From NCBI GenBank assembly GCA_011605725.1, contig JAAOZP010000011.1, positions 96,001 to 160,000 on the forward strand: a stretch of DNA of 64,000 nucleotides. The letters are read 5' to 3'. The notes under the pieces were generated by a model that was not told the DNA's origin, did not search any database, and saw only the letters and a list, made by a program, of their open reading frames with translations. The DNA comes from Nitrososphaerota archaeon. Lineage in GTDB: Archaea; Thermoproteota; EX4484-205; JAAOZP01. A program made the position numbers and the translations under genes. Shown piece after piece: positions 6,376-55,500 of this stretch; position 1 is the first letter of the stretch, and each line of letters starts with the position of its first letter.

Positions 6376-7044
6376 TTGAAGATTGACCTGCATGTTCACA
6401 CTGTCTACTCAGATGGAAACGGAACTGTCAGGCAGGTTCTTGAGACTGCTAAAGCAAAGGGCTTAGACGGCTTAGCCATAACTGACCACGCTACTCTCCA
6501 AGGCTATTTTGAAGCTAAGAAATATTGTGGGGAAATACTTGTCCTACCGGGGTTTGAACTGAGCACGGATGCTGGCCACGTGCTGGTCATAGGCCTTGAA
6601 CATCTTCCACCTAGCAAGGATCGTTTAAACTACGAGTGGCTCGTTGAATGGGCTAGGGGTGAGGGTGGGTTAACTATTCTGGCTCATCCTGCTTTAAACA
6701 TAGGTAAGCTGGGAAGATGGGTTGATTGCAAAACTGATGCTGTTGAGGCTCTGAACGCTTCCTACCCTTTAAGCTTCTTCGTGAACAGGGGAGTGAAGAT
6801 CGCTAGTCGCCTTGGCATCCCAACAGTCGGAGGCAGCGACGCCCATTTTTCCATAAGCGTCGGAGACGCGCACACGGTTGTTGAAGCAGACAGCTTATGC
6901 TTCGAAGGTTTTTCAAGAGCTATTAGAAAAGGAAAAGTTGCTTTCGACGGCAGGCTTTCGCCATTCTCCTCCAGGGTAAGAATAGGGTTTAGATACTTGG
7001 CTTCGAGAACGTTTTTTAAAACCCTTTTTGAAAACAATCCTTAA
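6376..7044 (+). CDS. PHP-domain metal-dependent phosphoesterase
   Basis: DLHVHT..SDG, AITDH, AHP, GGSDAH. Confidence 0.9.
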   Translation: MKIDLHVHTVYSDGNGTVRQVLETAKAKGLDGLAITDHATLQGYFEAKKYCGEILVLPGFELSTDAGHVLVIGLEHLPPSKDRLNYEWLVEWARGEGGLTILAHPALNIGKLGRWVDCKTDAVEALNASYPLSFFVNRGVKIASRLGIPTVGGSDAHFSISVGDAHTVVEADSLCFEGFSRAIRKGKVAFDGRLSPFSSRVRIGFRYLASRTFFKTLFENNP

Positions 7045-9852: not shown

Positions 9853-10089
9853 TCTGAAGATTTGAGAGTGGGCGTGTGGTTAAAAACTTCTCTCCCCCGG
9901 ATTCTTGAAACCAGTGTTAGCTTCAGGCGAGCTGGACTCGCGTTCCGCGTTCTTAAAACCATATGTTTATAAGGATTCTGGATTTTAGAAACACATGCGT
10001 GGAGTGAGGGAAAACAGGAAGACAAGAATACTCTGCAACCATTTTGCTCGAAAGCAGGCTTACCCGGAGGATTCTCCTCCTGATCCCCT

Positions 10090-11508
10090 TTGACGAGCAC
10101 AGGGCCTGCTTTTAAACCTGGCTACGCTCTCCCAAGTGAGGTTTTGGAGAAGCTCAGGAATCTGCTTGGCGAGAGGTTTTCAACGGGAGATGCTGACCTT
10201 CTCTCCTACAGTCACGATTACTGGCCAATATCTCTGCAATGGGTGCTTAAAGGGAGCTTCCCCTGGGTGCCCAGCGCTGTCGCTTGGCCGGAGAACACGT
10301 TTGAAGTCCAAGAAATCGTTAAGACTGCTTACGGGAACAGTATTCCGGTCTACGCCTTCGGCGGGGGCTCAGGGGTTCTGGGCGGGACTGTTCCCGAGAA
10401 GGGAGGAATAGTTGTAGACTTGAAGAGGATGCGCTCAATCCGGCTCAACGAGGAAGACATGGTTGTCGAGGCCGAGGCTGGGGTTAACGGTTACTACTTG
10501 GAGAAGTATTTGAACAGCAAGGGTTACACGCTCGGCCATATTCCTCAATCCATCTATGTTTCAACCCTGGGAGGGTGGATTGCTACTAAAGCGACTGGAC
10601 AGTTCTCAACCAAGTACGGCGGCATAGAGGATATGGTTCTGGGGCTTGAGGCAGTCCTGCCTTGGGGGAGTGCAGTAACACTGCCGCCACATCCTAGAAC
10701 ATCAACCGGTCCGGATTTGAGAAGACTCTTCATAGGAAGTGAGGGTGTTCTAGGTATAGTTACCAGGGCCTGGCTTAAAACATGCATACTCCCGGAGGAA
10801 AGGGTTCTCCTCTCCTATGTTTCAGAAACCTTTGAAGAGGCTCTTGAATCCGTCAGGAGAATACTCAAGAGGGGTGCTAAGCCAGCTGTAGTGAGGGTTT
10901 ACGACGAGGCTGAGACTAAAAGACACTTCTACATGTTTGAAGAAGCATACGGCAGGATCATGACCGTGATCGTGGTGGAGGGGGACTCTGGAATTGCTGG
11001 GGCTGAGCGCAGGATTGTGGAGGAGGAGTTCAGAGGAAGGATGCTTGGAGAGGAGCCTGTGAAACACTGGCTTGAAACAAGGTTCATGGTTAAAGAGGCT
11101 TCCGAGTTTGCTCCGCTAGGGGTTGTTTTCGACACTATAGAGGTTTCAGTAGGCTGGAGCAGGGCTATGAGCCTCTACCGGAGCCTTGTTGAAGCGGTGC
11201 GGGCTGTTAAGGGGACGCTCTTCGCATCCGCGCATGCTTCACACTTCTATCCTCAGGGCGTCTGCTTCTACTTTACTTTCGCCGGAGTGCCTAGGGGCAA
11301 CCCGGAGAAGTATTACAACGACGTGTGGGAAGCCGCGATGAAGACTACTCTTGAAAACGGCGGGTCGATAAGCCACCACCACGGCGTCGGCAGGCAGAGG
11401 AGAAGCTGGCTTAAGAATGAGCTTGGACCTGCCTTCAACCTTCTCAAAAAGGTTAAGACTGCTCTAGACGATAAGGGTGTGATGAACCCGGGGAACATGG
11501 GGTTGTAA
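10090..11508 (+). CDS. Alkyl-dihydroxyacetonephosphate synthase-like FAD oxidoreductase (VAO/PCMH fold)
   Basis: GHIPQS..STLGGWIAT, KYGGIEDM, PRTSTGPDL, GSEGVLG, ISHHHGVG, MNPG. Confidence 0.85.
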   Translation: MTSTGPAFKPGYALPSEVLEKLRNLLGERFSTGDADLLSYSHDYWPISLQWVLKGSFPWVPSAVAWPENTFEVQEIVKTAYGNSIPVYAFGGGSGVLGGTVPEKGGIVVDLKRMRSIRLNEEDMVVEAEAGVNGYYLEKYLNSKGYTLGHIPQSIYVSTLGGWIATKATGQFSTKYGGIEDMVLGLEAVLPWGSAVTLPPHPRTSTGPDLRRLFIGSEGVLGIVTRAWLKTCILPEERVLLSYVSETFEEALESVRRILKRGAKPAVVRVYDEAETKRHFYMFEEAYGRIMTVIVVEGDSGIAGAERRIVEEEFRGRMLGEEPVKHWLETRFMVKEASEFAPLGVVFDTIEVSVGWSRAMSLYRSLVEAVRAVKGTLFASAHASHFYPQGVCFYFTFAGVPRGNPEKYYNDVWEAAMKTTLENGGSISHHHGVGRQRRSWLKNELGPAFNLLKKVKTALDDKGVMNPGNMGL

Positions 11509-11509
11509 A

Positions 11510-12655
11510 ATGCCTGGGAAATGGGACTGGCTTAAGGATGAGCTGCGCGCATCCGGATTGGCTGGAGCCACCCCCCTCGTCATCAGGTTTATCAGCGGGA
11601 GGCTACGGGGGCCTGACGACCTTGTGAAGTGTGCCCTATGTCCAAACATGTGTCGCCACGCCTGTCCAGTGGGCATAGTTGACGGGAGGGAGACGACCTC
11701 GCCGGCTGGAAAGACTAGGGCGGCTCTCCTCCTGAGGCAGGGGAGGCTGCAGCCGACGCTGGAGAACGTTTCTCCGCTTTACACCTGCCTCTCGTGCAAC
11801 GCGTGCAGCGTCTGGTGTCCTTTCGGTTTTTCAGTCGCAGACCTTGTTAGGCCAGTTAAGGAGAAGGCTGCCGGCGGCGGAAGCATCTTCAAAGAGTTTA
11901 GAGAGGTTTTTGAAAACCTTGAGAAACACGGGTATGTATATGGAGAGCCTAAGCGTGAGGATTCAGGCTTGCACGGCGACCTGCTCTACTTAAGAGGCTG
12001 CACGCTGAGGGAGAAGCAGCCGGGCGTAGCTGAGAAGGCTGAGCATGTTTTAGAGGAGCTTGGCTACAGGCCTTTCACGATTGACGAGGCGTGCTGCGGC
12101 ATACCTGCCTACAACCTTGGGAACACTAGGCTCTTCAAGAGGGTTGCGGAGAAGCAGGCTGAGAAGATAAACTCTAGCGGCGCTGGAATAATCGTAGCCT
12201 CATGCCCATCCTGCGTATACGCTTACCGAGTCCTCTACCCTAAGCACGGGGTTAAGATTAATGCTGAAGTCAATCATATTGCAGAGTTCCTAGAGGACAG
12301 GCTGAAGGGTTTTAAAGGAGAAGGCAGGGTTGTTATCCACAACCCTTGTAAGCTAGCCTTTGCACTAGGGAAGCCCAAGGCCCTTTACAACACGCTCTCC
12401 AGCGTCGAGGGGCTCACCGTCAGGGAGCCGAGGAGAAGCGGAGGCGAAACATTCTGCTGCGGGTACGGTGGGAGTGCTGTTCCTCGTCTCAACCCTCAGC
12501 TGGCCCGCAGAATAGCCTTGGAGAGGGGGGTTGAGCTTACGGAGGAGGCTGAAACCATTGTCACAGCGTGCCCAACATGCAAGCTAGCTTTAGAGTCAAA
12601 CGGTTTCAAGGTTCTCGACGTAATGGAGCTTCTCCACTCTTTCACCAGTGGTTAA
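11510..12655 (+). CDS. GlpC/HdrD-like Fe-S protein (two ferredoxin-type motifs plus CCG domains)
   Basis: CALCPNMCRHACP, CLSCNACSVWCP, CCG twice, CPSC and CPTC. Confidence 0.88.
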   Translation: MPGKWDWLKDELRASGLAGATPLVIRFISGRLRGPDDLVKCALCPNMCRHACPVGIVDGRETTSPAGKTRAALLLRQGRLQPTLENVSPLYTCLSCNACSVWCPFGFSVADLVRPVKEKAAGGGSIFKEFREVFENLEKHGYVYGEPKREDSGLHGDLLYLRGCTLREKQPGVAEKAEHVLEELGYRPFTIDEACCGIPAYNLGNTRLFKRVAEKQAEKINSSGAGIIVASCPSCVYAYRVLYPKHGVKINAEVNHIAEFLEDRLKGFKGEGRVVIHNPCKLAFALGKPKALYNTLSSVEGLTVREPRRSGGETFCCGYGGSAVPRLNPQLARRIALERGVELTEEAETIVTACPTCKLALESNGFKVLDVMELLHSFTSG

Positions 12656-12657
12656 CA

Positions 12658-14415
12658 ATGTTCACGCTAGACGATAAAGTAGCAAGCGTTTTAAAAAAGT
12701 ATCCTTACAATATTTCCTTCAGAGTAAGGGATAACATTGTTTTCCTCCAGGGAGAGGTTGACAGCCACATGGAGTGGGTTGAAATAGGGCTTTCCATAGG
12801 CAGGATAAGAGGGGTTGAGGGGGTTGTGAATAAGATAACGTGGAGAGGCGCCTCAGGGAAGGAGGCTAGAGAGGAGTGGAGAAGAAGGGTTTTCGAAGAA
12901 AAGAGGAACGCTGTGGTCGGAGAGTACGACGTGGTCATAATAGGCGGGGGAGTCGTCGGAGCAGCCCTAGCTAGAGAGCTCTCGAAATACGAGCTTAAAA
13001 CAGCTCTCCTGGAGAAGTCTACGGATATTGCTGCCGGAACCACTAAGGCGAACAACGGCATGATTCACGCGGGCGTGGAGCCCTCCAGGGGTACTCTGAA
13101 AAGAATGCTTAACGTAAGGGGGAACGCTATGTACGGTAAGCTTGCTGAGGAACTGGGTTTCAGGTTTAACCGGCTGGGCAGCCTCTGGCTGGTCACTCCA
13201 AGGACGCTGGCGTCGTACAGGAAGTATCTGCCGGGTCTGCTTTACAACCTGGTGTTGAAACACGTTTTTCCCTGGGTGGTTAAGATTAAAGGCTTGGTGA
13301 ACGGGGTTAGGAGCATTAAAATCATAAGGGGCCGAAGGATTTTCGAGCTCGAGCCGTTCGCAACCAGGGATGCTGTGGCTGCAGTCTACATTCCTTCCAC
13401 GGCTGTAGTCGACCCGTATGAGGTGGCTGTTGCCCTCGCGGAAAACGCTGAGGCTAACGGTGTTGAGATTCATCTAGAGACTGAGGCCGTCGGCTTCATC
13501 AAGGATGGTAGTGTCATCAGGGGAGTCGTAACCAATAAGGGGGTTTTCCTATGCAGATACGTCGTAAACTCCGCAGGGCTTTACGCTGACGAGGTTGCTG
13601 CACTAGCCGGCTCAGAGGAGTACACTATCCACCCGAGGAAAGGAGTACTCCTGGTTTTTCACAGGGACACCGGGGTTTTCACCCGCCACTGTCTGGCTGA
13701 GATCATTCTCCCTCAGGATCCATACACCAAGGGTGGGGGTATAAACCCTACTGTCCACGGGAACGTGCTCTGGGGGCCGACGGCGGTCGAGGTCCCGGAT
13801 AAGGAGGACACGTCCGTTACAAGGGAGGAGATAGAGCATGTCTTGAACAAGTACTCAGGCATAGTTCCCGGGTTTCCGAGGGACAAGGTGATAAGGTATT
13901 TCGCAGGCGTAAGGGCGGCGACATTCACAGAGGACTTCGTCATAAGGCCTGCCAAATGGGTTAGGAACCTCCTACACGTAGCCGGAATACAGTCGCCCGG
14001 GCTCGCCGCCTCACCAGCCATAGCGGAATACGCTGTCGAGAAGCTGAGGGGAATGGGGCTGAGGCTCAAGCCGAAGACGGGCTTCAACCCCAGAAGGAGG
14101 CCAATGCCGAGGGCAGCCGACATGAGCCTTGAGGAGCTTGAGGAGAAGATAAGGATGGACCCCGCGTGGGGCAGGATCGTGTGCACCTGCGAATTCGTCT
14201 CAGAAGCTGAGATCGTGGAGGCTGTTCGAAGAGGCGCTAAGACCCTCGACGCTGTGAAGAGGCGTACTAGGGCAGGGATGGGGGAGTGTCAAGGGAGCTT
14301 CTGCACGCTTGAAACAGCTCTCATCCTGTCTAGGGAGACAGGCGTGCCTTTGGACATGCTTCTTAAGGAGGAGGGTAGGCTGTTCAACGGCTACGTCAGG
14401 GGTGAGCAGCCGTGA
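12658..14415 (+). CDS. GlpA-like FAD glycerol-3-phosphate dehydrogenase with N-terminal BON and C-terminal BFD-like [2Fe-2S] domains
   Basis: IIGGGVVG, TKANNGMIHAG, GIQSPGL, CTCE..RAGMGECQGSFC; BON pattern VFLQGEV..GVEGVVNKI; ATG 12658 follows the upstream stop. Confidence 0.85.
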   Translation: MFTLDDKVASVLKKYPYNISFRVRDNIVFLQGEVDSHMEWVEIGLSIGRIRGVEGVVNKITWRGASGKEAREEWRRRVFEEKRNAVVGEYDVVIIGGGVVGAALARELSKYELKTALLEKSTDIAAGTTKANNGMIHAGVEPSRGTLKRMLNVRGNAMYGKLAEELGFRFNRLGSLWLVTPRTLASYRKYLPGLLYNLVLKHVFPWVVKIKGLVNGVRSIKIIRGRRIFELEPFATRDAVAAVYIPSTAVVDPYEVAVALAENAEANGVEIHLETEAVGFIKDGSVIRGVVTNKGVFLCRYVVNSAGLYADEVAALAGSEEYTIHPRKGVLLVFHRDTGVFTRHCLAEIILPQDPYTKGGGINPTVHGNVLWGPTAVEVPDKEDTSVTREEIEHVLNKYSGIVPGFPRDKVIRYFAGVRAATFTEDFVIRPAKWVRNLLHVAGIQSPGLAASPAIAEYAVEKLRGMGLRLKPKTGFNPRRRPMPRAADMSLEELEEKIRMDPAWGRIVCTCEFVSEAEIVEAVRRGAKTLDAVKRRTRAGMGECQGSFCTLETALILSRETGVPLDMLLKEEGRLFNGYVRGEQP

Positions 14416-15653
14416 GGGACGCCACGGTGATAGGAGGGGGGCCTTCAGGTCTGGCTGCAGCCGTATGGCTTGCGGAGAAGGGTTACGACGTAGCGGTCGT
14501 CGAAGTGATGGGGGAGCTCGGCGGGATGTTGACGCAGTGCATTCACGATGGCTTTGGAACAAGGGTTTTCGGAGAAGCCCTTTCGGGGCCAGAGTTTTCA
14601 GAAAGGCTTGTGAAAAAGGCCCGGTTGCTCGGGCTCAGGACGTTTCTGAATACCTACGTGAAGGAGGTTAGGATCGGGAAGGAGTTTAAAGAGGTTGTTG
14701 CAGTCAGCCCGGCGGGGGTTCAGAGGCTTCAGACTAGGGTGATAGTCTACGCGATAGGCTGCAGAGAGAGGAACGGTTTTGAAATAAGGCTTGGCGGAGC
14801 AAGGCCGGCAGGGGTCTACACGGCTGGAATGGTTCAGAGGCTCGTAAACCTGTACGGGGTTCTCCCGGGGAGGAGGATCGTGATAATGGGCGGCGGCGAC
14901 GTCGGCATGATTGTAGCTAGACACCTCCACCTGGAGGGTGTGGAGAGCATCCTGATGGTTTTCCCAGAGGCTGGCTTCGCAGGGCTTCCGAGGAATGTTC
15001 AACAATGCATTCTAGACTTCGGAATCCCGTTCAGGCCCAGGACGGTTGTGAAAAAGGTAATCGGGAAAGAGAGGGTGGAAGGAGTCGTCTTAACCAGGGT
15101 TGATGAAAAGTGGAACCCTGTTGAGGGGACTGAGGAATTCCATGCTTGCGACACTGTTGTCCTCGCCCTAGGCTTAGTGCCCTACACCGGGGAGCTTAAG
15201 CTCGGGGTTAGAATGGATCCTGCAACCAGAGGCCCTGAGGTGAACGAGTTTTTCGAAACCAGTGTGCAAGGGGTTTTCGCCGTGGGGAACCTCGTCCAGG
15301 TTTTCGACTATGTTGACGACGCTTTTGAAACCGCATGCATAGCTGCCAGGGGTGTGGAAAAGTATTTGAACAGCGGGTTGAAGACGGCTCCGATAAGGCT
15401 TTCCCCAGGGGAAAACGTTAGGATGCTTACACCCCAGAGGGTTGAATGGGTTGACGATGCGGACGTGCCGGTGTTCCTGAGACCGGCTGTTGAGAAGGCT
15501 AATGTACGCATAGTGGTGAGGAACAGGGAGGGAAGGGTCCTCGGAGGATTCTTCAAGAGGTATGTTAGGCCTTCTACGCTTGAGAGAATAGAGGTTCCCA
15601 GAAGCATGCTAAGCAACCTGCAGGAGGTTTCGATAGATATTGCAGAGGATTGA
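14412..15653 (+). CDS. Pyridine nucleotide-disulfide oxidoreductase (partner of GlpA-like G3PDH)
   Basis: IGGGPSG, QCIHDGFG, GCRER, GGGDVG, TSVQGVFAVGN; GTGA overlap. Confidence 0.88.
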   Translation: MRDATVIGGGPSGLAAAVWLAEKGYDVAVVEVMGELGGMLTQCIHDGFGTRVFGEALSGPEFSERLVKKARLLGLRTFLNTYVKEVRIGKEFKEVVAVSPAGVQRLQTRVIVYAIGCRERNGFEIRLGGARPAGVYTAGMVQRLVNLYGVLPGRRIVIMGGGDVGMIVARHLHLEGVESILMVFPEAGFAGLPRNVQQCILDFGIPFRPRTVVKKVIGKERVEGVVLTRVDEKWNPVEGTEEFHACDTVVLALGLVPYTGELKLGVRMDPATRGPEVNEFFETSVQGVFAVGNLVQVFDYVDDAFETACIAARGVEKYLNSGLKTAPIRLSPGENVRMLTPQRVEWVDDADVPVFLRPAVEKANVRIVVRNREGRVLGGFFKRYVRPSTLERIEVPRSMLSNLQEVSIDIAED

Positions 15654-16002
15654 GCTTCTCTGCACCCGGTGCCCCAGGGGCTGCCTTCTAAGGGTTACTG
15701 CAACAGGGAGCAGAGTGGCTGTGGAGGGTAACGAGTGTCCAGTTGGCGAGAAGCACGGGGCCGAGGAGGCTTTGAACCCTAGGCGGACCGTCTCGACAAC
15801 TGTTAGGATAATTGGCGCGAGGCTTCCACGCCTTCCAGTAAGGACTTCTGAGCCGGTGTTGAAGAATAGGGTGAGGGATGTTGTTGCTGCGCTTAAGAAC
15901 ATTGCAGTAGAGGCCCCGGTTAAGGCGGGTCAGGTAATTCTTAAAAACGTTGCTGACACTGGAGTAGACATCATAGCTGAGAGGGATATGGAGAGGGCTT
16001 AG
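15640..16002 (+). CDS. DUF1667 family metal-binding subunit
   Basis: CTRCPRGC..GNECP..NPRRTVSTTV..LPVRT..APVKAG. Confidence 0.9.
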   Translation: MQRIELLCTRCPRGCLLRVTATGSRVAVEGNECPVGEKHGAEEALNPRRTVSTTVRIIGARLPRLPVRTSEPVLKNRVRDVVAALKNIAVEAPVKAGQVILKNVADTGVDIIAERDMERA

Positions 16003-16003
16003 C

Positions 16004-17506
16004 ATGAGCTATTTTCTCATACTGGATGTCGGAACCACCAACGTGAAGGCGCATGCTTTTTCGATTAATGGTGAAAACCTGCTTGAACTAGCGGAGAGGC
16101 TTCGGCCAAGCTATCCTAGGCCTGGATGGGTTGAAGAAGACCCGATGGACTTCATCATCAGGATTAGCAGACTCGTCGACATGTTTTTCGAAAAGCTTGG
16201 GAAACCGCTTGGAATAGGCTTGACAAACCAGCGGAGCAGCACCGTCTTATGGAGCAAGAAGTCTGGGGAGCCTCTTTACAACGCGATCACGTGGCAGGAC
16301 ACTAGGACCAAGGATATTGTAGAAGAGTTTTCCTCAAGGTTTCTAGTAAGCATGGGGAGGACACTGGGCAAGGCTTTCAACCTTCTCTCTAAGGCTTTTC
16401 CACCTTTAAAGGAGACAAGCAGGGGAGCCTACTTTGTTACACTTGCATACGTGTCGTTCGGAACAACACATTCCTCCATGCACCTAAGATGGCTCATCGA
16501 CAATGTTCCAGATGCGAGGCGCGCCGTTGAAAACGGTGAGGCTGTTTTCGGAACGATAGATTCATGGATCGCTTGGAACCTTACTGGCAGACATGTAACC
16601 GACTATACTAACGCGAGTGCCACAGGCCTGTTCGACTCTTTCAGCATGAAATGGAGCAGGAACATTTTAAGCATCGTAGGGGTTCCGAGAAGCATTCTTC
16701 CAACAATAGTTCCTAACGATGCTGCAATAGGCAGGGTTAAGGATTACGATGTTCCTCTTCTCACAATGATAGCTGACCAGCAGGCCTCACTTTACATGGC
16801 GGGTGTTTCCAAGGGTGTTGTGAAGATGACGAGCGGCACCGGAACATTCATAGATATGAATGTTGGGGAGAAGTGTATGGCTGGAGCGAGAGGACTCTAC
16901 CCGTTGATTGCACTCGCCACCAAGCGTAGAAACCTTTACCTGCTGGAGGGGAATGTTCTAACCTCAGGCTCAACGCTAGACTGGCTTATTGAAGTAGGGC
17001 TTATGAAAGACTATTCTGAGATACGTGAAGCCTTCGAGAAAACGGGGGAGGGCGGAATAGTGTTCATCCCCGCTCTCTCCGGGCTCGGAACACCCTATGT
17101 GAAGCCTGATGCAACAGGCATGATCCTTGGGATCACGAGGGGAACCAGGAGGGAAGACCTGATCCGAGGGGCTGTTGAGGGCGTGGCTATGCGCTGCGTG
17201 GAGATACTCGAGTATCTTGAGAAAACAACTGGAATAAGGGTACAGCGCGTAGTAGCCGACGGCGGGCTCTCTAAGAGCGACGACTTCCTCCGGACTGTTG
17301 CAAACTATTCTTCAAAGCTTGTCTTGAGACCAGTACACCTGAATGGCTCCGCCTACGGGACCTACATGCTGTGTAAGAACATATTGCTCGGAAAGGATCC
17401 TGTGGAAGCATGGGAAGAGCCTGCTGTCGAGAAGGCTTTCACCCCGGTTGAACCCAGGGGGGAGCTTATGGCACGCTGGACCAGAGCTTTGAGGAGGCTT
17501 CTTTAA
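16004..17506 (+). CDS. glpK: FGGY-family glycerol kinase (GK5-like, with insertion)
   Basis: LDVGTT, TNQR, WQDTR, GTIDSW, TDYTNASATG, DQQA, GTGTF, DGG. Confidence 0.85.
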   Translation: MSYFLILDVGTTNVKAHAFSINGENLLELAERLRPSYPRPGWVEEDPMDFIIRISRLVDMFFEKLGKPLGIGLTNQRSSTVLWSKKSGEPLYNAITWQDTRTKDIVEEFSSRFLVSMGRTLGKAFNLLSKAFPPLKETSRGAYFVTLAYVSFGTTHSSMHLRWLIDNVPDARRAVENGEAVFGTIDSWIAWNLTGRHVTDYTNASATGLFDSFSMKWSRNILSIVGVPRSILPTIVPNDAAIGRVKDYDVPLLTMIADQQASLYMAGVSKGVVKMTSGTGTFIDMNVGEKCMAGARGLYPLIALATKRRNLYLLEGNVLTSGSTLDWLIEVGLMKDYSEIREAFEKTGEGGIVFIPALSGLGTPYVKPDATGMILGITRGTRREDLIRGAVEGVAMRCVEILEYLEKTTGIRVQRVVADGGLSKSDDFLRTVANYSSKLVLRPVHLNGSAYGTYMLCKNILLGKDPVEAWEEPAVEKAFTPVEPRGELMARWTRALRRLL

Positions 17507-17507
17507 A

Positions 17508-18916
17508 TCAGTTTTCAGCATGTTTAAAGTAGACAGGGTTCGTCAAAGCGAAGACGGTGTCGTCCTCCCCAAGTTTGACGGAATACGGGTCTGAGTACCA
17601 GCCCAGCTCAGCCCTTATAAACATGCAGTTCTGCTTAACCCTGAGCTTCTTCACATGCTTGAAGGCTTTTCCATCAATACGGATTGTTTCCTCCACTCCT
17701 TGAGAAGTTATCAGTCTCAGCACGGCTCCTTCCCCGTCCTGGGCTTCAGCCGTGATTTCCACCTCCTCTTCACCGTTCACGTTAACCACGTCACCGGTTT
17801 CAAAGACTCGTGGACCAGAGTAAGCCTTCAACTCTAGAAGCGGCCCGTTTAGAGAATGAGATATGAATACCCTGCCCTGTTTAACGGAGCTTAATACACT
17901 CCTTATAGAGAGAGAGTTTACCCGTATCCACGTAGTCGGTTCGCTAAGCCTGATGAAAGAATTCTCCGCACCATGATAGTCGCTACCGCCTACGCTGTCA
18001 CCTTAAGACCCTCGCTCAGCAAGCTATGCCACCATGCAAGAGATTCCCAGTTCTTCAAAAACCATGGGCCGTTCCAAACTTCCACAGCGTCGAAACCCCT
18101 TACTTCTTTAAACTGGAAGTCGCAACCTATGCAGAGCTCTCCGAGGTCCCTAGGGTGGTCAACCGATACTAAGAGGCCTCTGCTGTGAGCCTCGTTGATC
18201 AGAGAAACAAAGTCCTCCCGCCTCCTCCTTCTGAAGTCAAACCAATCTCCTCCCCATATGTTTAAGTGCCCGCGGTACGTGGTTACTTCCACTCCAGGTA
18301 TTAAAAGGACAGGCGGGTCCTTGATTCCCAGAACCTCGTAAAACTGGCTTCGCGTATTGTGGTCAGTTATAGCTATGTAGTTCAGGTTCTGTTCAAGAGC
18401 CATGTCAACCAGTTCAGGGATACTCTGCTTCCCATCGCTATGATGGCTGTGAACATGTAAATCCCCCTTTATCCATCCTGAGGCTAAGGCTTGCTTCCGC
18501 TTGGGCCACTTTAGAGAGTGCTCTTCAAAACCGTGACCCGTGGAAACAGCTTCTCCAAGCCTAAAAGCACTCGCTAAAACCCTGTACTTGCATCCGTCGG
18601 GCGGTATTTTAGCCAGACCTAGGATTATTGACCATGCTCCAGGAGGGATCTCGCCGGCAACATACCCTGGGGTAGCTGCCTCAACGGATATTGTGAACTT
18701 AGGCTTGTTCGAGCCACTCCAACCCCTGAACAATCCTTTCGGGTCTATTATGCCTATGTCTAGGACACACTTCGGTCCTCCCTGGTATTCGTACGAGACC
18801 TCTATGGCGTCGCAGGCCTGGGGAAGGTTGAACGTTAAGTACTTGTAGTCATCTTCATCCTTGTCTCTGGGGGTTAACACTCCTTGAAACTCCCATCTTA
18901 GAACTTCCTTCCTCAA
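17508..18916 (-). pseudogene. CehA/McbA-family PHP metallohydrolase with a 1-nt frameshift at about 17993
   Basis: GDLHVHSHHSDG, ITDHN, DHP; a frame shift restores VGGSDYH...PTTW and runs into ORF 17508..17831, which ends ALTNPVY. Confidence 0.8.
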
Positions 18917-20059: not shown

Positions 20060-23000
20060 ATGATGATATTAAACACATGCCGCATATTCGTTAGGCGTTT
20101 TGGAAAAACATGGGCAGGAGTACTGCTCGTAAGCATGATGCTCCTAGTCGTGCTCTCAATGTTGCCAACATCCCTGCATACTAGTGCAGTACCCCCCAGC
20201 AGACAACCCCCCAGTATTACGATTAATACTGTTACTCAGGACGGTAATCTTTTTACCGTCAAAGGGGTTGCTAGCTTCAGCGTCCCTGCTGGCCAGACGA
20301 GTCAATACCATGTTCAAGTGGTCTGGGAGCATAACGGTAGTGTTGTCTTTCAAAACGATTATGCAGAGATCCCCCCGTTGAAAGACCTGGGTGAAGAAAG
20401 ATACGAGTATGATTTTGCTGATTCTAGAACGCTGAATACTGGCGGGGAATGGACAATCAGGGCTAGACTCTACCATGTGAAACCTCCCGGGAACGATAAT
20501 CAGGCAGATGCTTCTACGAAGATCATTTTCACAACTTTTATGGTGACCATTACCACTAAGCCGGAAGGATTAAAAATAGCTGTGGACGGGGAAGTCTACA
20601 CGTCTCCGCAAACCTTTGCTTGGCTAAACGGCTCTAAGCACACTATCGGCACCTTCTCCCCGCAGTCTGAAGGAGACACGATTTACACGTGGGTTTCTTG
20701 GAGCGACGGCGGTGAAATAAGCCACATGGTGACAGCAGTAGGCGACGCCATCTACACAGCATTCTTCAAGAAGCAGTATCTTGTGTGCTTCAACCAAACG
20801 GGTCTTGACAGTTCTGCAACCGGGGTTATTGTAACGGTTAATGGTTCATCTAAAAGCTATGACAAACTGCCTTTCAGCAACTGGTATGATGAGAACGATT
20901 GGATCAGCTATAGTTATGCTGAAACAGTGAATAGCTCTCAAACAGGGAAAAGGTTCAAGCTTAACTATGTCACTGGACCAGCCTCGCCTTTCCAAGTCTC
21001 TTCATTCACGCTAGTGATTGGCAGCTACACGCCTCAATACCTTCTGACTGTTGAAACCGAGCCTGACGGCTTAACAATTATTCCTGGTGGCGGATGGTAT
21101 GATGCAAACTCGTTAATCATTTTAACAGCGCCGGGAACAATACCGGTTTCACAAGGAATCCAATACAGGTTCAGCCACTGGAGCATAGACGGGGTTTCTC
21201 AAGGCATGGGGGTCAACCCTATTACGGTGAGCATGAACACGACTCATACTGCAACAGCCCACTATGTTCTTCAATACTATCTGACGGTGGAATCTCCATA
21301 CGGGGCACCAAGCCCGGGCAGCGGATGGTTTGACGCTGGAACAAGTATAACAGCATCAGTCACCTCACCCTGGCCTCCTGACTCTGCAGACACCCGGAGT
21401 GTTTGCACAGGATGGGTAGGCACAGGAAGTGCCCCGTCCTCTGGAACCAATACTGAAGTGTCTTTCACTATTAATGCGCCCTCAAGCATAACCTGGAGCT
21501 GGAAAACCCAGTACCGCGTCGCTTTCATCCAGACAGGTGTTGACGTCGACTTCACCGGGGTAGTGATGACTATTGACGGTATCGGCCACGGTAGGGAGGG
21601 TCACGCCGCCTGGTATGATGTTGGAGCAAGCATCGACTTCAACTTCACGGGACTCCTGGTTGTTGCAGTCAACCAGAAACGATACGTGTTGACTAGCGTC
21701 AACGCTTCCACACCCTTGATTGTTACAGGCCCGCTTACCGTCATGGGCAGCTATAGGACACAGTATTACTTGACGATGATCACGAGCCACGGTACAGTAA
21801 GCCCCGGCGACGGGTGGTTTGACGCTGGTTCAACCGTGGAGATAACCGCTGCCCTGCCTCCGGTTGTCCAGGGTGAACGCTATGTTTGGATGGGATGGAC
21901 AGGGACAGGAAGCGGGTCATACACCGGTATGCAGAACCCGGCTCAAATAACCGTTAACAGCCCGATTAAAGAGTCAGCCTCATGGAAGCATCAATACTAT
22001 CTGGCTGTGAACACGCCATACGGCACTGCTGGCGGCGAAGACTGGTATGATGAGGGTTCAGCCGCTTACGCTACAGTAGCCCCGCTAACGGTTGACGGGC
22101 CGGATGGCGTAAGGTATGTCTTTTCACACTGGAGTGGAGATGCTTCAGGGACTGCTTCAACTTCAGACCCGATTACGATGAATGCGCCGAAGACGGCGAT
22201 TGCCATCTGGAAGACTCAGTACCGAGTTGTGTTCAACCAGAACGGTTTAGATGAAACAGCTGTTGGAACCGTTGTCACTGTCAACGGCTCAGAACATATG
22301 CAGAGCAACCTGCCTTTCACAACATGGGTGGACAGCGGTGCTTCAATCAACTATGGCTTTGAAAGCATTGTTTTAACCAGCGACCCCGGTAAGAGGTTTA
22401 GGCTAAACAATGTGACTGGGCCTGAAACACCGTTTACTGTTACTGGTCCCGTAACGGTTGCTGGAAACTATGTCACTCAATGGCGGGTCGTGTTCACTGT
22501 AGATCCACCCGGTTCAGGAACAACCGTGCCCTCTGGAGCCGGCTGGTATGACGCAGGGATACGGTTCAGCATATCTGCTGAGGCTAATCCTGGGTTCTCG
22601 TTTTCAGAGTGGACTGTGAACACCTCATCCATAAATATCGCCGACACTTCGTCGCAGCAGACCAGTGTGACAGTAAATGGTCAAGGAACCGTCACAGCAT
22701 GCTTCACCATTTTCTACACCGTCTCTTTCACTCAAATAGGCTTGCCAACCGGGGTTGAGTGGAGCGTTACTTTCAACGGGGTGACGAAATCCTCTACGTC
22801 GAACACTATTGTTTTCAGCAATGTTCAAACCGGAGACTACGCTTGGAGCACGCTAACGCTTATTCAATTAGATTCTGGAACAAGATACTTAGCGTCACCC
22901 TCATTCGGAACACTAAGCGTGCCGTCGCAGCTGACGCAAACGATAAGCTACACTGCCCAGTATAGGGTTGAAATATCATGGTCTGGGCTTGATGCTGAAG

Positions 23001-26000
23001 CCAGCGGCGGGAAAGTGGTCATCATCACGGTAGGCGGCACGGTTTTCAGCAGGAATGTGGAAGACGCTTTCTACGAGGAGTGGGTTAATGCTGGAGCAAC
23101 AGTAAGCTATGCTTTCGAGGAAACCTTGTCTACAGCAATGTCGGGGAAAAGGTTTAGCCTCCACCATGTATCAGGCACTTCGGCAAGCTTCTCCAACGAC
23201 TTCGGTCCCATTTCAGGACCAGTATATGAAACAGCATACTATAAAGCTCAATACTATATTACTGTAATCAGTGACTACGGCAGCCCAACTTCCTCAACAT
23301 GGGTTGACGAGGGGACCAGTTTCACCGCCTCGGTGACAAGCCCGGCTGAAACCATGGTCAACCAGCACCAATGGGTCTGCACAGGCTTCAAGGTAGATGA
23401 GAATCCTGTTCAAGAGGGTTCGAGCTACACGTTTGTAAACGTGCAGACGCCGCACACCATAGTGTTTTACTGGAAGAAACAGTTCTGGATCCAGGTTAAC
23501 AGCAACCATGGTTCTCCAACACCCTCCCAATGGGTGGATCAGGGTGGAAGCCTTATGGTGAGCGTAACCTCTCCAACCGACGAGTCTGAAGGAGTAAGGT
23601 ATAGGTGTAAAGGCTACACTATAGATAGCAACCCGCCTGTTGAAGACGGGAGCACAAGCCACTTTTTCAGTGACGTTCAGAGTGCTCACACGATTACTTT
23701 CAACTGGATCGCCCAGTACAAGGTTACTTTCTACACTAATCCTGTTCAGGGGACTGTAACGGTTCGGGGAGTAGTTAAGAATAATGGTGAAAGCGAGTTT
23801 TACGATGATGGGGAATCAATCCCGATTACTGCGAACCCTCCCTCTGGCTACTGGTTCTCACGCTGGACAGTAACCGGCGGAGTCGCTGTAGACAACTATG
23901 GGAGTCAAACGGCAATTATGATGGTGAGCAGACCAGGCAGTCTTTCAGCAATATTCGTCATAAACGCTGTCTCAATAACAATCACTTCCAGCCCTGTTAC
24001 TGGAGTAGGCTTCATCAAGGTTGACGGCGTGCCCTACAATACTCCGGTAACTTTCACATGGGTAACTGGGACGACCCACGTGCTGGAGGCGGTTTCAATC
24101 GTGCCTGGGGCAACAGGCATTAGGTATGTATGGAAAAGCTGGAGTGACAGCGGGGCTCAGATGCATGTCTACACTGTCCCCAGCATGTCTGAGACAGTGA
24201 CAGCATGCTTCTCAACCCAGTATTATCTGACGGTGATTTCACCGCACGATACTCCAGGAGGCTCAGGATGGTATGAGGAGGGCTCAATCGCGTATGCAAC
24301 GCTTGAGACCAGAATTGTTGTCGAGAACGGTGTGCAATACGTGTTTACAGGCTGGAGTGGAGACGCTTCCGGAACAAGCCTTACGAGTAACCCGATAATG
24401 ATGAACGGTCCGAAAACCGCTGTGGCGAACTGGGCAACTTCAGCATACACGGTGACTCTCGACAAGAGCCCGAGGCAAGGAGTGATCACAGTTGACGGTG
24501 TTGTTTACACGAGTCTTCCGGTAGTGCTCAACTGGGTTCCAGGATCTTCTCACACGGTTATGGTTCCCAGTATTGAAGAGGCGGGAGGCACAAGGTATGT
24601 TTTCAGAGAATGGTCAGACGGCTCGACACAGGCTAGTAGAATAATCGTCGCTGAGAAAACTGGAGCAGTCTATGTCGCCTACTACAACGTGCAGCATAGG
24701 CTAACGGTCTACTCTGACCACGGGCTGACCACGGGCTCAGGATGGTATGACGAGGGTGTTGAAGCAGTTTTCTCCGTAACACCAACCATAGTGAGAGACG
24801 AGACAGAGGGAGTGGAGTACACGTTTAAAGGCTGGGTTGGAAGCGGGGCTGGAAAACACTACACCGGGCCGGATAATCCTGCGCGAGTCATAATGACTGG
24901 GCCTGTTGAGGAGAAAGCAGAATGGGAGCCTTCAATGTACTGTTTAAAAGTTGTCAGCGAGTATGGAGACCCGTATGGAAGCGGCTGGTATCCTGTAAAC
25001 TCTGAAGCACGGTTCGGAGTAAACACGCCTGTTAACCATGGTAACGGCACGATGAGAGTCTTCTTAAACTGGTTTGGAGACATAAGTCTCAGGGAGCCTG
25101 TTGGAACCCTGATTATGGTTAGGCCGTATACTGTAATAGCCAACTGGGACACTCAATACTTAGTGGTTTACAATACGACTGCTCCAAACGGTGTTTTACT
25201 ATCTGTGCCAGGAGTGCCTCAAACATTGGCACCGGGCTTCAACGTTTACGCGCAGTATTACTCAGCAGGAAGCAGGGTTAAAATCGGGCCGGCGCCCGGA
25301 ACCGTGTACGCGACTGAGGATACAAGGTATTGTTTCGAAGGCTGGATGATAAATGGGGAACCGGTCTCTTCCGATTCGAACCTAGACTTTACTGTGAATA
25401 AGCCTCTGCACATATCCATGACATATGGAACCGAGATACTCTTGACTGTAAACGTGGTAGGGGCGAATCGCAACTTCACTGTGAAACTTACGGTGGAGAA
25501 GAGCCCAGCCTACGTGCTTGACATCACGCCCTTATCTCCCTTTAAAGAATGGGTGAAGAAAGACACTGGCTTAACCCTCACCGTTTCCAGCCCGAACAAG
25601 ATAGGCCGTGGAGAGTGGGCTGTTTTCAGAGAATGGTCTGGAGACGCTCAGGGAAGTCAGAGAATAATCTCGTTGAAAGCTTCGAGACCAATAACGGTGA
25701 ACGCAGTGTTCTTCGCGGTCAACCCGGTTGCAGAATCAATACCCTACTCGCTGTTAACGGGCATAGTGTCGATAGTTCTTTCACGTTTAATACGGAGAAA
25801 ACGTGCAGAAGAACCCTTGGAACACCGGAGCTATTCGCCAACCCTGGGAATAGTGTCGCTGACTGCTGTGTTAACCGTATCAATAATAGTGAGCATCAGC
25901 GTAGCCATGGGCTACGGGATAAACGTTGCTGAGCTTCCAGACTTAGAAAACTGGGCCGTATTGTTCACCGGGGTTGAGGCAATCTTCTTCCTGGTCGCGA

Positions 26001-26077
26001 CACTGCTTGTTACAAGGCGTTCTTACCCGAGGAAGATGGAGATCCCAGTCATCTATCCGAACCCCTACGGGATTTAA
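20060..26077 (+). CDS. Giant cell-surface protein with about 20 beta-rich repeats (divergent InlB B-repeat-like) and about 3 C-terminal TM helices
   Basis: Signal peptide; recurrent GxGWYDxG..RYVFxxWxG..AxWxxQY units; many NxS/T sequons. Confidence 0.8.
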   Translation: MMILNTCRIFVRRFGKTWAGVLLVSMMLLVVLSMLPTSLHTSAVPPSRQPPSITINTVTQDGNLFTVKGVASFSVPAGQTSQYHVQVVWEHNGSVVFQNDYAEIPPLKDLGEERYEYDFADSRTLNTGGEWTIRARLYHVKPPGNDNQADASTKIIFTTFMVTITTKPEGLKIAVDGEVYTSPQTFAWLNGSKHTIGTFSPQSEGDTIYTWVSWSDGGEISHMVTAVGDAIYTAFFKKQYLVCFNQTGLDSSATGVIVTVNGSSKSYDKLPFSNWYDENDWISYSYAETVNSSQTGKRFKLNYVTGPASPFQVSSFTLVIGSYTPQYLLTVETEPDGLTIIPGGGWYDANSLIILTAPGTIPVSQGIQYRFSHWSIDGVSQGMGVNPITVSMNTTHTATAHYVLQYYLTVESPYGAPSPGSGWFDAGTSITASVTSPWPPDSADTRSVCTGWVGTGSAPSSGTNTEVSFTINAPSSITWSWKTQYRVAFIQTGVDVDFTGVVMTIDGIGHGREGHAAWYDVGASIDFNFTGLLVVAVNQKRYVLTSVNASTPLIVTGPLTVMGSYRTQYYLTMITSHGTVSPGDGWFDAGSTVEITAALPPVVQGERYVWMGWTGTGSGSYTGMQNPAQITVNSPIKESASWKHQYYLAVNTPYGTAGGEDWYDEGSAAYATVAPLTVDGPDGVRYVFSHWSGDASGTASTSDPITMNAPKTAIAIWKTQYRVVFNQNGLDETAVGTVVTVNGSEHMQSNLPFTTWVDSGASINYGFESIVLTSDPGKRFRLNNVTGPETPFTVTGPVTVAGNYVTQWRVVFTVDPPGSGTTVPSGAGWYDAGIRFSISAEANPGFSFSEWTVNTSSINIADTSSQQTSVTVNGQGTVTACFTIFYTVSFTQIGLPTGVEWSVTFNGVTKSSTSNTIVFSNVQTGDYAWSTLTLIQLDSGTRYLASPSFGTLSVPSQLTQTISYTAQYRVEISWSGLDAEASGGKVVIITVGGTVFSRNVEDAFYEEWVNAGATVSYAFEETLSTAMSGKRFSLHHVSGTSASFSNDFGPISGPVYETAYYKAQYYITVISDYGSPTSSTWVDEGTSFTASVTSPAETMVNQHQWVCTGFKVDENPVQEGSSYTFVNVQTPHTIVFYWKKQFWIQVNSNHGSPTPSQWVDQGGSLMVSVTSPTDESEGVRYRCKGYTIDSNPPVEDGSTSHFFSDVQSAHTITFNWIAQYKVTFYTNPVQGTVTVRGVVKNNGESEFYDDGESIPITANPPSGYWFSRWTVTGGVAVDNYGSQTAIMMVSRPGSLSAIFVINAVSITITSSPVTGVGFIKVDGVPYNTPVTFTWVTGTTHVLEAVSIVPGATGIRYVWKSWSDSGAQMHVYTVPSMSETVTACFSTQYYLTVISPHDTPGGSGWYEEGSIAYATLETRIVVENGVQYVFTGWSGDASGTSLTSNPIMMNGPKTAVANWATSAYTVTLDKSPRQGVITVDGVVYTSLPVVLNWVPGSSHTVMVPSIEEAGGTRYVFREWSDGSTQASRIIVAEKTGAVYVAYYNVQHRLTVYSDHGLTTGSGWYDEGVEAVFSVTPTIVRDETEGVEYTFKGWVGSGAGKHYTGPDNPARVIMTGPVEEKAEWEPSMYCLKVVSEYGDPYGSGWYPVNSEARFGVNTPVNHGNGTMRVFLNWFGDISLREPVGTLIMVRPYTVIANWDTQYLVVYNTTAPNGVLLSVPGVPQTLAPGFNVYAQYYSAGSRVKIGPAPGTVYATEDTRYCFEGWMINGEPVSSDSNLDFTVNKPLHISMTYGTEILLTVNVVGANRNFTVKLTVEKSPAYVLDITPLSPFKEWVKKDTGLTLTVSSPNKIGRGEWAVFREWSGDAQGSQRIISLKASRPITVNAVFFAVNPVAESIPYSLLTGIVSIVLSRLIRRKRAEEPLEHRSYSPTLGIVSLTAVLTVSIIVSISVAMGYGINVAELPDLENWAVLFTGVEAIFFLVATLLVTRRSYPRKMEIPVIYPNPYGI

Positions 26078-52593: not shown

Positions 52594-55500
52594 TTAATAA
52601 TTTTCAACAAACTTTCTTGCCGATATCTCATACATCTTTCCCTCAGCGTCGAACGTTATAATGTTTTTGTTCAGCCGTATTGCTGCTATCGCGAGCGCTG
52701 AGCTTAACAGGCCGTCGTCTGAATCTAGACATACAGCGTCTATCGTGAGGATTTCTTCAGAAAGCCTTTCGACAAGCGTATTCATGTCTCTCGATTCAAC
52801 CCTCCTAACCTCGATCGTCGGAGGCCAGATGCCTTCAGACCTAACTTTCCTCCTCAATTCCTTCACCTTGCCGCTTACATCCGATCTCGAATAGATGATT
52901 AAAAATTGAGGGCGGTATTTTCTAACAACTGTTGCGGCATAATCCACTGACTCGCCCATTACTACAGCCACGTTAAATCTTAATGTAGACCATTCAAGGA
53001 CGAGTTTCCTAACATGAGTTATAACTTCATGCGCATTTGACTCGAGCATAACTGCGTAGAGGGATTTCGTATGAACGTAAGCCGAGTATTCTTCCCCGTC
53101 CTTCTTAACTTCGATCGTGGTTAAGGCTGTAAACGGCCTATTGCCTCCCTTTCCATACCTGAAACTCACCGAATACGAGACATTTCCATTCTCATCCAGT
53201 TTTTCCTCACGTGAAACATCTGAAATTACCAGTTCTAACGCTGTACTGCTTTGAGGCAATCTTTCGTAAAGATAGTTAACAAACGTTTCAACCTTCTCCG
53301 AAGGAATCCTCACCGGGATTCGAACCGTCCACACTCCTTCTTTAACTACTTTTTCTTCCATTCTCCATCTTCTTAAAAGCGAGGGAGTTGCTATTTTCGC
53401 AGCCTTTAAGGCAGGAATTGTCGAAGAAACCATGGCTGTCAGAAATGCCATAAGTATTAGGGAGAACATATCTAGAGGAGTAGTTTTCACGTCAATGGGT
53501 ATGATCATGTTAGAGACATCAAACACTTTGAATATGATCATGCTCAATATATAGCCAATACCACCACCGATGAAACCGAATACTCCTGCCTCCACTATGA
53601 ACAGGCTGGAAATATGAGTGGGGTTTAAGCCTACAGATGAAAAAATGAATATTTCATTCCTCCTTTCGTAAACCAGCGTGTAGAACAGCAGCGTAATGTT
53701 TAACACAGTAATGATAACTGGGATGAGAACCGATATGCCAAAGACCTCGACAGAACCTCCTCTGAAGTAGTAGGTTATGCCTTCTGAGCTCGGCATAGTT
53801 ATGACTGAATAGTTAGCGAGCAAAGCCAATCTTCTTGAAACCTCTCTCGCCTGCGCATTGTCTTCGAATGTGCAGTAGAGCGCGGAAACATAGCCGCCTA
53901 ATCTTTGAGCGGTGAAAGCATCCGTTATCAAGAGGTTGTCAGCAGGTACCGGCTGAGCGTTTTCAAAGCCTGGAAGAATATACATGGGCAGGAAATGGCT
54001 ACCATCAGGCTCTTTTATCACGTTAACCGGCTCGCCATCAAATATGCCGACTACCTTTAGCCTTACACCTTTGAAAACAATGGTCATGCCCACGTCCACG
54101 TCTGCTCTGTTTGCCAAATACCTGCTTATGAGAACAGCATTACTGTTGTTGAACAGGCTTTCTATTGCATGCTCCGGGTATGTAGCGCTCTTAATAAGGT
54201 CTAGAGATGGATCTCCGGGCGAAACTCCTCTAACCCCATAGATCGGTACCTCGCTAACATAGTCTAGAGCGCCGTACGCAACGGGGGTTATCACCTTATA
54301 GTCTATTCTTGAAACCTCTCTCTGCGCACCTATGAAGCTAAAATCTTCAAGCGCGAGTGGGCCGGAAGGCTTGATCACCATCGACACCGGAGGCTTATCG
54401 GCTGGCCACGTTTTCGCCACCATAACAGCGTTAGTCGTTAGGGATACCCTTATTGAAGTCAGCGTGGATATTGCTATGATCATTATTGTAATGGAGACAA
54501 GAGTAAGTGTAGTTCTTAGCTTCCTCTTTTTCAAGTTTCCAATAGAGTATGAAATAGCGATCAATAAGGCAGGTATCAGTGAAACTCCTCGCTCGCTCTT
54601 TATTTCAAGAAAGTAGGGAGCTATAAATACAATTAGAAACATGAATATAACAATATAGATTCCTGTCTGAAGCTCCAATACTGTGATTCTTGAAAGACCT
54701 GGGAACACCTGGTAAGCTATAGTCATTAAAACGATGAATGTAATCACCGTCAACATTGCGTATTGATCCTTCCTCTCTGCAATTATCGAGCCGATGCATA
54801 AGGATAGGATCGCAACAATCACAAATACTATAATCTGGTTGGTTCGCGTTTCCCTCAAAATATTTTGAATATTACTGATTATTAATATGCTGCTCATCAC
54901 GGCTTCTTGCTGATACGCCAGTATCTTAATTGGGTCAGTGGCATTTAAAATAGCTAAACGGAATCTTTCAATCTGCTCCAACCTGTAAAGCTCCAGGCCT
55001 ACGTAGAGCCCAATATTCCTAGTTTCTTCTACATGTCTTTCAGCGGATTCAACGGTTTTGTTGACGAGAGTTTGATAGGACTTTACTTGAAGTAAAGCAG
55101 GCTGGTCTAAGTAGGTTTTAGCATTTTTGCTTAACCTAATTGGCCGAGTACTATTCCCTATTTCCAATACTGTTCTTCTCCCACCGACAGTGATTGAAAC
55201 CAGTATCCATAAGTCTGTTTCAGAAGGAACTATTAGGGTGTTTCCAGTTATGTTTAGCAGACCAAGTAGCGGCAGATGGCTTGAATCATAATTCAGTATC
55301 AGTTGATTAAGCCGCGTCTCATTAAGAATGAGGACACGCATTTCCTGAGTTGGAATCAGCAGGTCGAAAGGGGAAGGAACAACAGCTAGGACCTTTGCAA
55401 CCGCTCCTGGACATAGGTTTATTTCCACGTTCTTGGTTTCTCCGACTGATAGTTTTCCTAGGCTTATTATTTGAGGCACATAAGTATCTTTTTCGTTTAG

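Follow-up and report, generated by a model that had tools for sequence, protein, structure and literature searches.

A probably horizontally acquired archaeal operon with an AGPS-like flavoprotein, an FngABC-type dehydrogenase and a GK5-like kinase: a candidate pathway for 1-substituted glycerols

Alkyl-dihydroxyacetone phosphate synthase (AGPS, also ADPS; EC 2.5.1.26; PDB: 4bby, 2uuu) is a stand-alone, non-redox flavoprotein of 584–658 amino acids. FngABC from Pyrococcus furiosus (PF2005–2007), purified in October 2026, is a ferredoxin- and NAD-dependent electron-bifurcating glycerol-3-phosphate (G3P) oxidoreductase (PMC13689815). Like the T. kodakarensis GlpTk complex, it consists of three subunits encoded in a fixed order next to a gene of the glycerol kinase family (PMC13689815; PMC11962113), and its authors consider that many FngABC homologues probably use other polyols (PMC13689815). 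Here, we analyze a six-gene archaeal operon in which relatives of both systems occur together. It lies at positions 10090–17506 (+ strand) of a 64,000-nt stretch of contig JAAOZP010000011.1 (positions 96,001–160,000; assembly GCA_011605725.1), hereafter the window, and its genes, g1 to g6, are separated by 1–2 nt or overlap by 4–14 nt. We propose that this is a horizontally acquired, self-contained operon for a three-step pathway whose likely substrate would be a C1-substituted glycerol, most plausibly a bacterial-type monoradylglycerol (monoalkyl or monoacyl). We regard the chances of this proposal as evenly balanced.

The first gene, g1 (10090–11508, + strand), encodes a 472-residue AGPS/YgcU-type FAD flavoprotein with the Pfam domains FAD_binding_4 and FAD-oxidase_C. 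Its best relative of solved structure by sequence is AGPS (4bby; phmmer, 196 bits, 7.6e-57), followed by D-lactate dehydrogenase (123 bits, 1e-34). The fold comparison gives the same order, with AGPS on top (Foldseek template-modelling score 0.84–0.87, E 7e-37; predicted local distance difference test (pLDDT) of the g1 model, 79). The identity to AGPS is about 28%, and the genomic context is archaeal and anaerobic; nevertheless, g1 shares with AGPS the two-domain FAD fold, the HHH loop, and the equivalents of Arg419, Thr568 and Tyr578. Two motifs, PRTSTGPD and SHHHGVG, are intact. R269, S384, Y394 and H429–431 of g1 align with R419, T568, Y578 and H615–617 of AGPS, are invariant in 13 archaeal members of the family, and are also present in bacterial homologues and in Escherichia coli YgcU. 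These are catalytic residues of AGPS, and two of them are altered in solved mutants, R419H (4bc7) and Y578F (4bca), as named in the titles of the PDB entries.

The match of g1 to the GlcD model TIGR00387 is significant (E 1.7e-49), but its 168.8 bits fall under the cut-off of 567.9. Where GlcD has GEHG, g1 has HHHG, and the HxGDGNxH metal site of GlcD is absent. Both of these GlcD features are found in E. coli GlcD and in the GlcD-like protein encoded on contig C16 of the same archaeal genome. The identity between g1 and E. coli YgcU is 32%, and the two share the signatures HHHG, H-x-S-H-x-Y and PR..GPD.

Unlike stand-alone AGPS, g1 has a conserved adjacent gene for an iron-sulfur protein in archaea. 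This gene, g2 (11510–12655, + strand), encodes an HdrD/GlpC-like protein of 381 residues (Pfam Fer4_8 and two CCG domains) with two ferredoxin-type [4Fe-4S] motifs and two complete HdrB-type CCG motifs (CX31-36CCX36-37CXXC). The invariant cysteines are at positions 41/44/48/52, 93/96/99/103, 164/195/196/232/235 and 280/316/317/354/357. The same architecture, an HdrC-like part with two [4Fe-4S] motifs and an HdrB-like part with two CCG motifs, is found in GlcDEF, GlpC and HdrD; these systems differ from the g1–g2 pair in that g1 is of the AGPS type and not of the GlcD type. Thermococci are not known to contain quinones.

A model of the g1–g2 complex reached an ipSAE of 0.91, as compared with 0.00 for the best control, and at least 91% of the contacts were shared among three runs. 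Of 80 solved complexes, 58 attain this ipSAE mark, as do 2 of 110 mismatched pairs. The model places the ferredoxin domain of g2 (residues 39–105) on the FAD domain of g1, with a partner pLDDT of 88 or more. The prediction supports binding of g2 to g1, with the qualification that the score may reflect likeness to complexes of the GlcD/GlcF type.

The next three genes encode a complex of the FngABC type. The domains of FngA (DAO and a BFD-type [2Fe-2S] domain), FngB (Pyr_redox_2) and FngC (DUF1667) are present in adjacent genes in the canonical order: g3 (12658–14415, + strand; FngA/GlpA-like dehydrogenase, 585 residues, Pfam DAO and Fer2_BFD), g4 (14412–15653, + strand; FngB-like FAD/NAD oxidoreductase, 413 residues, Pfam Pyr_redox_2) and g5 (15640–16002, + strand; FngC-like protein, 120 residues, Pfam DUF1667). 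The longest open reading frame (ORF) of g3 begins at 12568; the ATG at 12658, located 2 nt past the g2 stop codon, agrees with the orthologues. In contrast to canonical FngABC, g3 carries an N-terminal BON domain (nt 12667–12846) and a hydrophobic insertion, and the complex is coupled to genes for AGPS-like and CCG proteins. The BON domain was found in all five FngA orthologues examined, in three of them above the Pfam cut-off. The insertion, of ~20 hydrophobic or basic residues, is a feature of the operon FngA orthologues that is missing from the canonical FngA of the same genome. Binding to membranes or phospholipids is the role usually ascribed to BON domains. Together, the BON domain and the insertion suggest that the substrate of this FngABC variant may be altered.

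The last gene, g6 (16004–17506, + strand), encodes a 500-residue FGGY-family kinase (Pfam FGGY_N and FGGY_C). Although its best matches among solved structures are glycerol kinases, g6 scores 345.9 bits against the GlpK model TIGR01311, which has a cut-off of 590.35. Among the residues that contact glycerol, R83, W103, D245 and F270 (E. coli GlpK numbering) are kept in g6 and its clade, whereas E84 is replaced by Ser and Tyr135 is lost, giving the signature R-S-W-T-D-F in place of the canonical R-E-W-Y-D-F. Of the ~150 top-ranking cluster representatives, drawn from 1.84 billion, 99 have the canonical signature. In GlpK, E84 and Y135 bind the far hydroxyl of glycerol.

Just before the position of Tyr135, g6 contains ~26 extra residues (residues ~113–147, nt 16340–16444). 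In the AlphaFold model of g6 (pLDDT 91), this insertion is helical (113–131, 134–137 and 139–147) and has a pLDDT near 90. The most amphipathic 18-residue segment of the protein falls within the insertion in three of four kinase orthologues. Metazoan GK5, which is ~30% identical to g6, shares the FGGY fold with it and with GlpK, and insect proteins named glycerol kinase 5 (P0321, P0375), which belong to the insertion-bearing minority of the ~150 representatives, have the same insertion and have lost the same Glu84 and Tyr135 ligands. In a 66-sequence FastTree analysis, no insertion-bearing sequence fell within the canonical GlpK clade, which had 99% support, and a "Glycerol kinase 5" cluster was among the matches in an Atlas search. 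GK5 was set aside as a candidate for the orphan mammalian alkylglycerol kinase, as that role has been assigned to ACAD10 and not to GK5 (bioRxiv 10.1101/2025.09.10.675409).

An initial annotation of this DNA, made from the letters alone, had named the same six abutting or overlapping genes, and its family assignments hold. The alkyl-DHAP-synthase-like flavoprotein with the HHH and PRxSTGPD motifs is borne out by sequence, fold and conserved residues; the trio likened to the Thermococcus-type G3P dehydrogenase is of the FngABC type by its domains and gene order, a type now known to be electron-bifurcating (PMC13689815); and the label GK5-like fits the kinase in its insertion, its lost ligands and its well-supported separation from canonical GlpK. 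At the same time, none of the proteins reaches the cut-off of a named NCBIfam equivalog (GlcD, 169 versus 568 bits; GlpA, 156 versus 553; GlpK, 346 versus 590).

The host is represented by a 2.2-Mb archaeal metagenome-assembled genome (MAG) that is 93% complete and in which the window belongs to contig C3; its order has only 26 species genomes. The nearest named relatives of its proteins are in Thermococcus sp. EP1 and Palaeococcus pacificus, and DNA of the window is found in hot-spring metagenomes from at least nine studies; no RNA data set was among the sequencing runs listed for it. The same genome has a canonical GlpK-FngA-FngB-FngC cluster on contig C1 (75750–80520), whose GlpK scores 633.3 bits against TIGR01311, above the cut-off, and it encodes about nine FGGY-family kinases in total. 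Between the window and contig C1, the copies are 32% (kinase), 35% (FngA), 43% (FngB) and 40% (FngC) identical. Given the canonical cluster elsewhere and these low identities, the window set is best described as a diverged second copy, and it probably acts on a substrate other than that of the canonical cluster.

The operon stands out from its genome in base composition, with a G+C content of 53.7% against a genome mean of 46.5% (standard deviation 2.6%); none of 1051 windows of equal size (7.4 kb) is as high. g1 is present in four of the 26 genomes of the order, all from one genus, and one of these copies is decayed. High G+C content and patchy presence give the operon the look of a horizontally acquired accessory module and suggest that the acquisition was recent. 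The decayed g1 copy, in another genome of the genus (G021, contig C13, 23467–23937), retains 80% identity over residues 306–468 and is interrupted by one TAG and two TAA stop codons; the module is being lost in this sister species.

The six genes recur as a unit in other archaea. They are found in the same order in MAGs of Thermococci and of Thermoplasmata/Thermoplasmatales, in Palaeococcus pacificus DY20341 (CP006019.1) and in Thermococcus sp. EP1, and in the order FngABC-g1-g2-kinase in a MAG of Hadarchaeota. Loci in Bathyarchaeota and Promethearchaeota contain only g1 and g2. In the other genomes, the flanks are occupied by unrelated housekeeping genes (gyrase, PCNA, LarA, nitroreductase), and no conserved transporter or lipase was found in the flanks of the other archaeal loci. 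The co-occurrence of the six genes, which had been put forward earlier as a check, thus extends across Thermococci, Thermoplasmatota and Hadarchaeota in unrelated surroundings. Because the full operon is present in two cultured strains, P. pacificus and Thermococcus sp. EP1, the proposal can be tested directly.

To place g1 in a wider context, we compared 70 further loci of g1 homologues, from bacteria of at least seven phyla and from Nitrosopumilus; many of these loci are from Streptomyces and are not independent. A GlpD-type dehydrogenase gene (DAO and DAO_C) is adjacent in 58 of the 70 loci, and a gene for a soluble DAGK_cat + YegS_C lipid kinase in 36, the same position being taken by an FGGY kinase in four. 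TetR regulators are found in 37 loci and FadR-type regulators in three. The occurrence of an AGPS-like gene beside genes for a GlpD-type dehydrogenase and a kinase across at least seven bacterial phyla is new here. The conserved unit (AGPS-like, GlpD, DAGK_cat/YegS and a TetR/FadR-type regulator) was seen in Actinomycetota, Chloroflexota, Acidobacteriota, Bacteroidota, Spirochaetota and others, and we found no published function for the GlpD + AGPS-like + DAGK_cat/YegS cluster. Its layout matches that of the glpD1 / TetR / Rv2251 / Rv2252 locus of Mycobacterium tuberculosis, and no functional study of Rv2251, Rv2252 or glpD1 was found in the literature.

These bacterial loci differ from the archaeal operon in that they combine GlpD with, mostly, a DAGK_cat lipid kinase and have no CCG partner. 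One Oscillospiraceae locus has FngABC and an FGGY kinase together with g1. Known substrates of DAGK_cat/YegS kinases are lipids. That the triad recurs even though two of its three parts have been exchanged for non-homologous ones marks it as a conserved pathway, and the presence of a lipid kinase where the archaea have an FGGY kinase suggests that the glycerol carries a lipid. The recurring combination of kinase, dehydrogenase and AGPS-like protein therefore argues for a 1-substituted, putatively lipid, glycerol as the substrate.

One of the 70 loci, in a MAG of Nitrosopumilus, an aerobic ammonia-oxidizing archaeon, has genes for GlpD, an AGPS-like protein and an FGGY kinase, with a separate GlcD-like pair that includes a CCG protein nearby (L026, 8382–12774 and 17521–21292).

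In the pathway that we propose, the GK5-like kinase would phosphorylate the free primary hydroxyl of a monoradylglycerol. This step is suggested by the g6 pocket, which keeps the residues for the phosphorylated end and loses two at the other end, where the helical, partly amphipathic insertion adjoins. The BON-tagged FngABC variant would then oxidize the C2 hydroxyl to give a 1-radyl-dihydroxyacetone phosphate (1-radyl-DHAP), with ferredoxin and NAD as partners by homology to P. furiosus FngABC. Finally, g1 would act on C1 of the DHAP moiety by chemistry of the AGPS type: after enolization, an adduct with flavin N5 would form and the substituent would be expelled or exchanged. With water as the nucleophile, the reaction would yield DHAP, which could enter glycolysis, together with a fatty acid or fatty alcohol; an ether substrate would thereby be cleaved independently of O2. 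We envisage that g2 keeps the flavin of g1 oxidized in a very reducing cytoplasm or, should the overall reaction be an oxidation, removes electrons.

Because a G3P-type dehydrogenase can act only where the C2 hydroxyl is free, the expected substrate is a 1-monoradylglycerol, and the 1-radyl-DHAP formed from it would be just the kind of compound that AGPS acts on. Since an ester can be cleaved by any lipase, an ether is the most plausible target of such chemistry. Alkyl glycerol ethers of bacterial origin occur in thermophiles and in hot springs (PMC5552659). Alkylglycerol monooxygenase (AGMO), which was called the only known alkylglycerol-cleaving enzyme in a 2021 review (PMC7911779), acts on the same substrate class, monoalkylglycerols. 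AGMO is a membrane enzyme that depends on O2 and tetrahydrobiopterin, whereas the proposed route would need no O2 and has no homology to it. The broader claim, that the triad constitutes a widespread and so far undescribed prokaryotic route of O2-free ether cleavage from monoalkylglycerol via alkyl-DHAP to fatty alcohol and DHAP, is one that we put forward tentatively and consider doubtful. No description of the assembled pathway was found in the literature searched, although the component families are known.

The order of reactions in this scheme, from kinase to C2 dehydrogenase to AGPS-like enzyme, is that of the initial annotation. It gains from the bacterial triad built of non-homologous parts, the lost kinase ligands, the BON domain and the AGPS residues of g1; the substituent may be an alkyl ether or an acyl or other group, and the catabolic direction of flow is putative. 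The suggestion that the route erases the stereochemical difference between glycerol-1-phosphate and G3P found no support. The assignment of electron handling to the CCG protein stands in part, as the protein is present and predicted to bind g1, but an electron step is not explained by AGPS chemistry.

Several observations weigh against the monoradylglycerol scheme. The predicted iron-sulfur partner implies electron transfer, which classical AGPS does not need, and a tightly bound subunit of this kind points to net redox chemistry beyond what the scheme requires. The helical N-terminal domain of eukaryotic AGPS (~150–180 residues) is missing from g1, the alignment pairing AGPS from residue 180 (guinea pig) or 132 (Dictyostelium) onward with g1 from residues 35–55. 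g1 and YgcU have H-x-S-H (H-A-S-H in g1) where AGPS has R-x-T-Q (R-V-T-Q), so the active sites are not identical to that of AGPS. The neighbors of E. coli ygcU are sugar-type genes, for major facilitator superfamily (MFS) transporters, a short-chain dehydrogenase/reductase (SDR) and an electron-transfer flavoprotein (ETF), and thus the AGPS-like family is not uniformly linked to lipids; we found nothing relevant in the literature on ygcU/ygcE. The archaeal operon contains no gene for a lipase, transporter or fatty-alcohol enzyme, and none of its six proteins has a transmembrane segment; the BON domain and the amphipathic helices are indirect signs of membrane contact. Archaeal diethers lack a free C2 hydroxyl and would be excluded from the route.

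Some of the same observations would be accommodated if the substrate were a polyol or glycerol derivative that is soluble and not a lipid (e.g., a C4–C5 polyol or a small 1-substituted glycerol) and that is converted to a keto-polyol phosphate and then oxidized at a further position by g1 and g2 acting as a two-subunit dehydrogenase. The predicted g1-bound iron-sulfur partner fits a net dehydrogenase, all six proteins are soluble, and the ygcU neighborhood and the number of FGGY kinases in the genome agree with such a role; moreover, many FngABC homologues adjoin genes for sugar kinases or polyol metabolism and not glycerol genes (PMC13689815). It accounts less well for the retention of the glycerol-type residues R83, W103, D245 and F270 in g6, for a g1 active site that keeps the AGPS residues for the DHAP moiety and not the GlcD metal site, and for the BON domain on FngA. 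The bacterial counterparts, with DAGK_cat/YegS kinases, whose known substrates are lipids, and with TetR/FadR-type regulators, also speak against it, and we consider a soluble substrate rather unlikely. Less probable still is a redundant glycerol/G3P pathway accompanied by a D-lactate or glycolate dehydrogenase of the GlcD/GlcF type, for example, for D-lactate formed from DHAP via methylglyoxal. The match of g1 to TIGR00387, the resemblance of g2 to GlcF, GlpC and LdhH, and the two-subunit architecture shared with GlcD–GlcF are what such a pathway would predict. Yet the GlcD, GlpK and GlpA scores lie far under the family cut-offs, the GlcD motifs are in the contig C16 protein and not in g1, and the genome already has a canonical GlpK-FngABC cluster; we regard this explanation as very improbable.

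A third alternative retains the lipid substrate and reverses its purpose. The operon could serve the synthesis or remodelling of ether lipids, with a monoacylglycerol or lysophosphatidate being converted to acyl-DHAP, the acyl group being swapped for a fatty or isoprenoid alcohol, and the alkyl-DHAP being reduced to give G3P-based ether lipids. This is the known direction of AGPS, and agps homologues in bacteria are commonly assigned to ether-lipid biosynthesis, e.g., in M. xanthus and Acidobacteriota SD4 (bioRxiv 10.64898/2026.06.23.733905); holders of the triad include Acidobacteriota and Chloroflexota. A kinase acting on a free glycerol derivative, however, is more in keeping with salvage or catabolism than with de novo synthesis, and P. 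furiosus FngABC runs oxidatively (PMC13689815). The archaeal operon has no fatty acyl-CoA reductase or acyltransferase, and a patchy accessory module, found in a few genomes of the order and decaying in one of them, is unlike a core membrane pathway. We judge a synthetic role improbable.

In anoxic sediments and hot springs, ether lipids serve as biomarkers that are taken to persist. If the monoradylglycerol scheme is correct for ethers, it would be the first anaerobic pathway of ether-lipid degradation, and an anaerobic alkyl-DHAP route would explain how the glycerol of ether lipids is recycled and would affect the reading of lipid biomarkers. It would also provide a role for a large, uncharacterized family of AGPS-like flavoproteins, to which the YgcU/Rv2251 type and the proteins found in Streptomyces and mycobacteria belong, and possibly for GK5-type kinases, and it would extend the FngABC bifurcating enzymes to lipid substrates.

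Upstream of g1, the 237-nt intergenic region contains a candidate archaeal TATA box, TTTATAA (9966–9972, + strand), read from the sequence. On the downstream side, the block is limited by a convergent gene whose stop is at 17508. This is a 107-residue ORF (17508–17831, − strand) with no family match, located directly downstream of a PHP-domain gene (17990–18916, − strand) that is likewise convergent with the operon. Upstream of the operon there is another PHP-domain gene (6376–7044), which is distantly related to the first. The possibility that the flanking PHP-domain genes mark a duplication boundary was rejected, as the two are distant paralogues (35% identity over 74 amino acids). Repeats around the cluster were limited to short chance matches, and an Rfam scan of the window gave no RNA family above threshold. 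Farther out, the window contains two giant ORFs, of 2005 residues (20060–26077, + strand) and 1791 residues (52594–57969, − strand), the first of which is followed by genes for a helix-turn-helix regulator and exported proteins.

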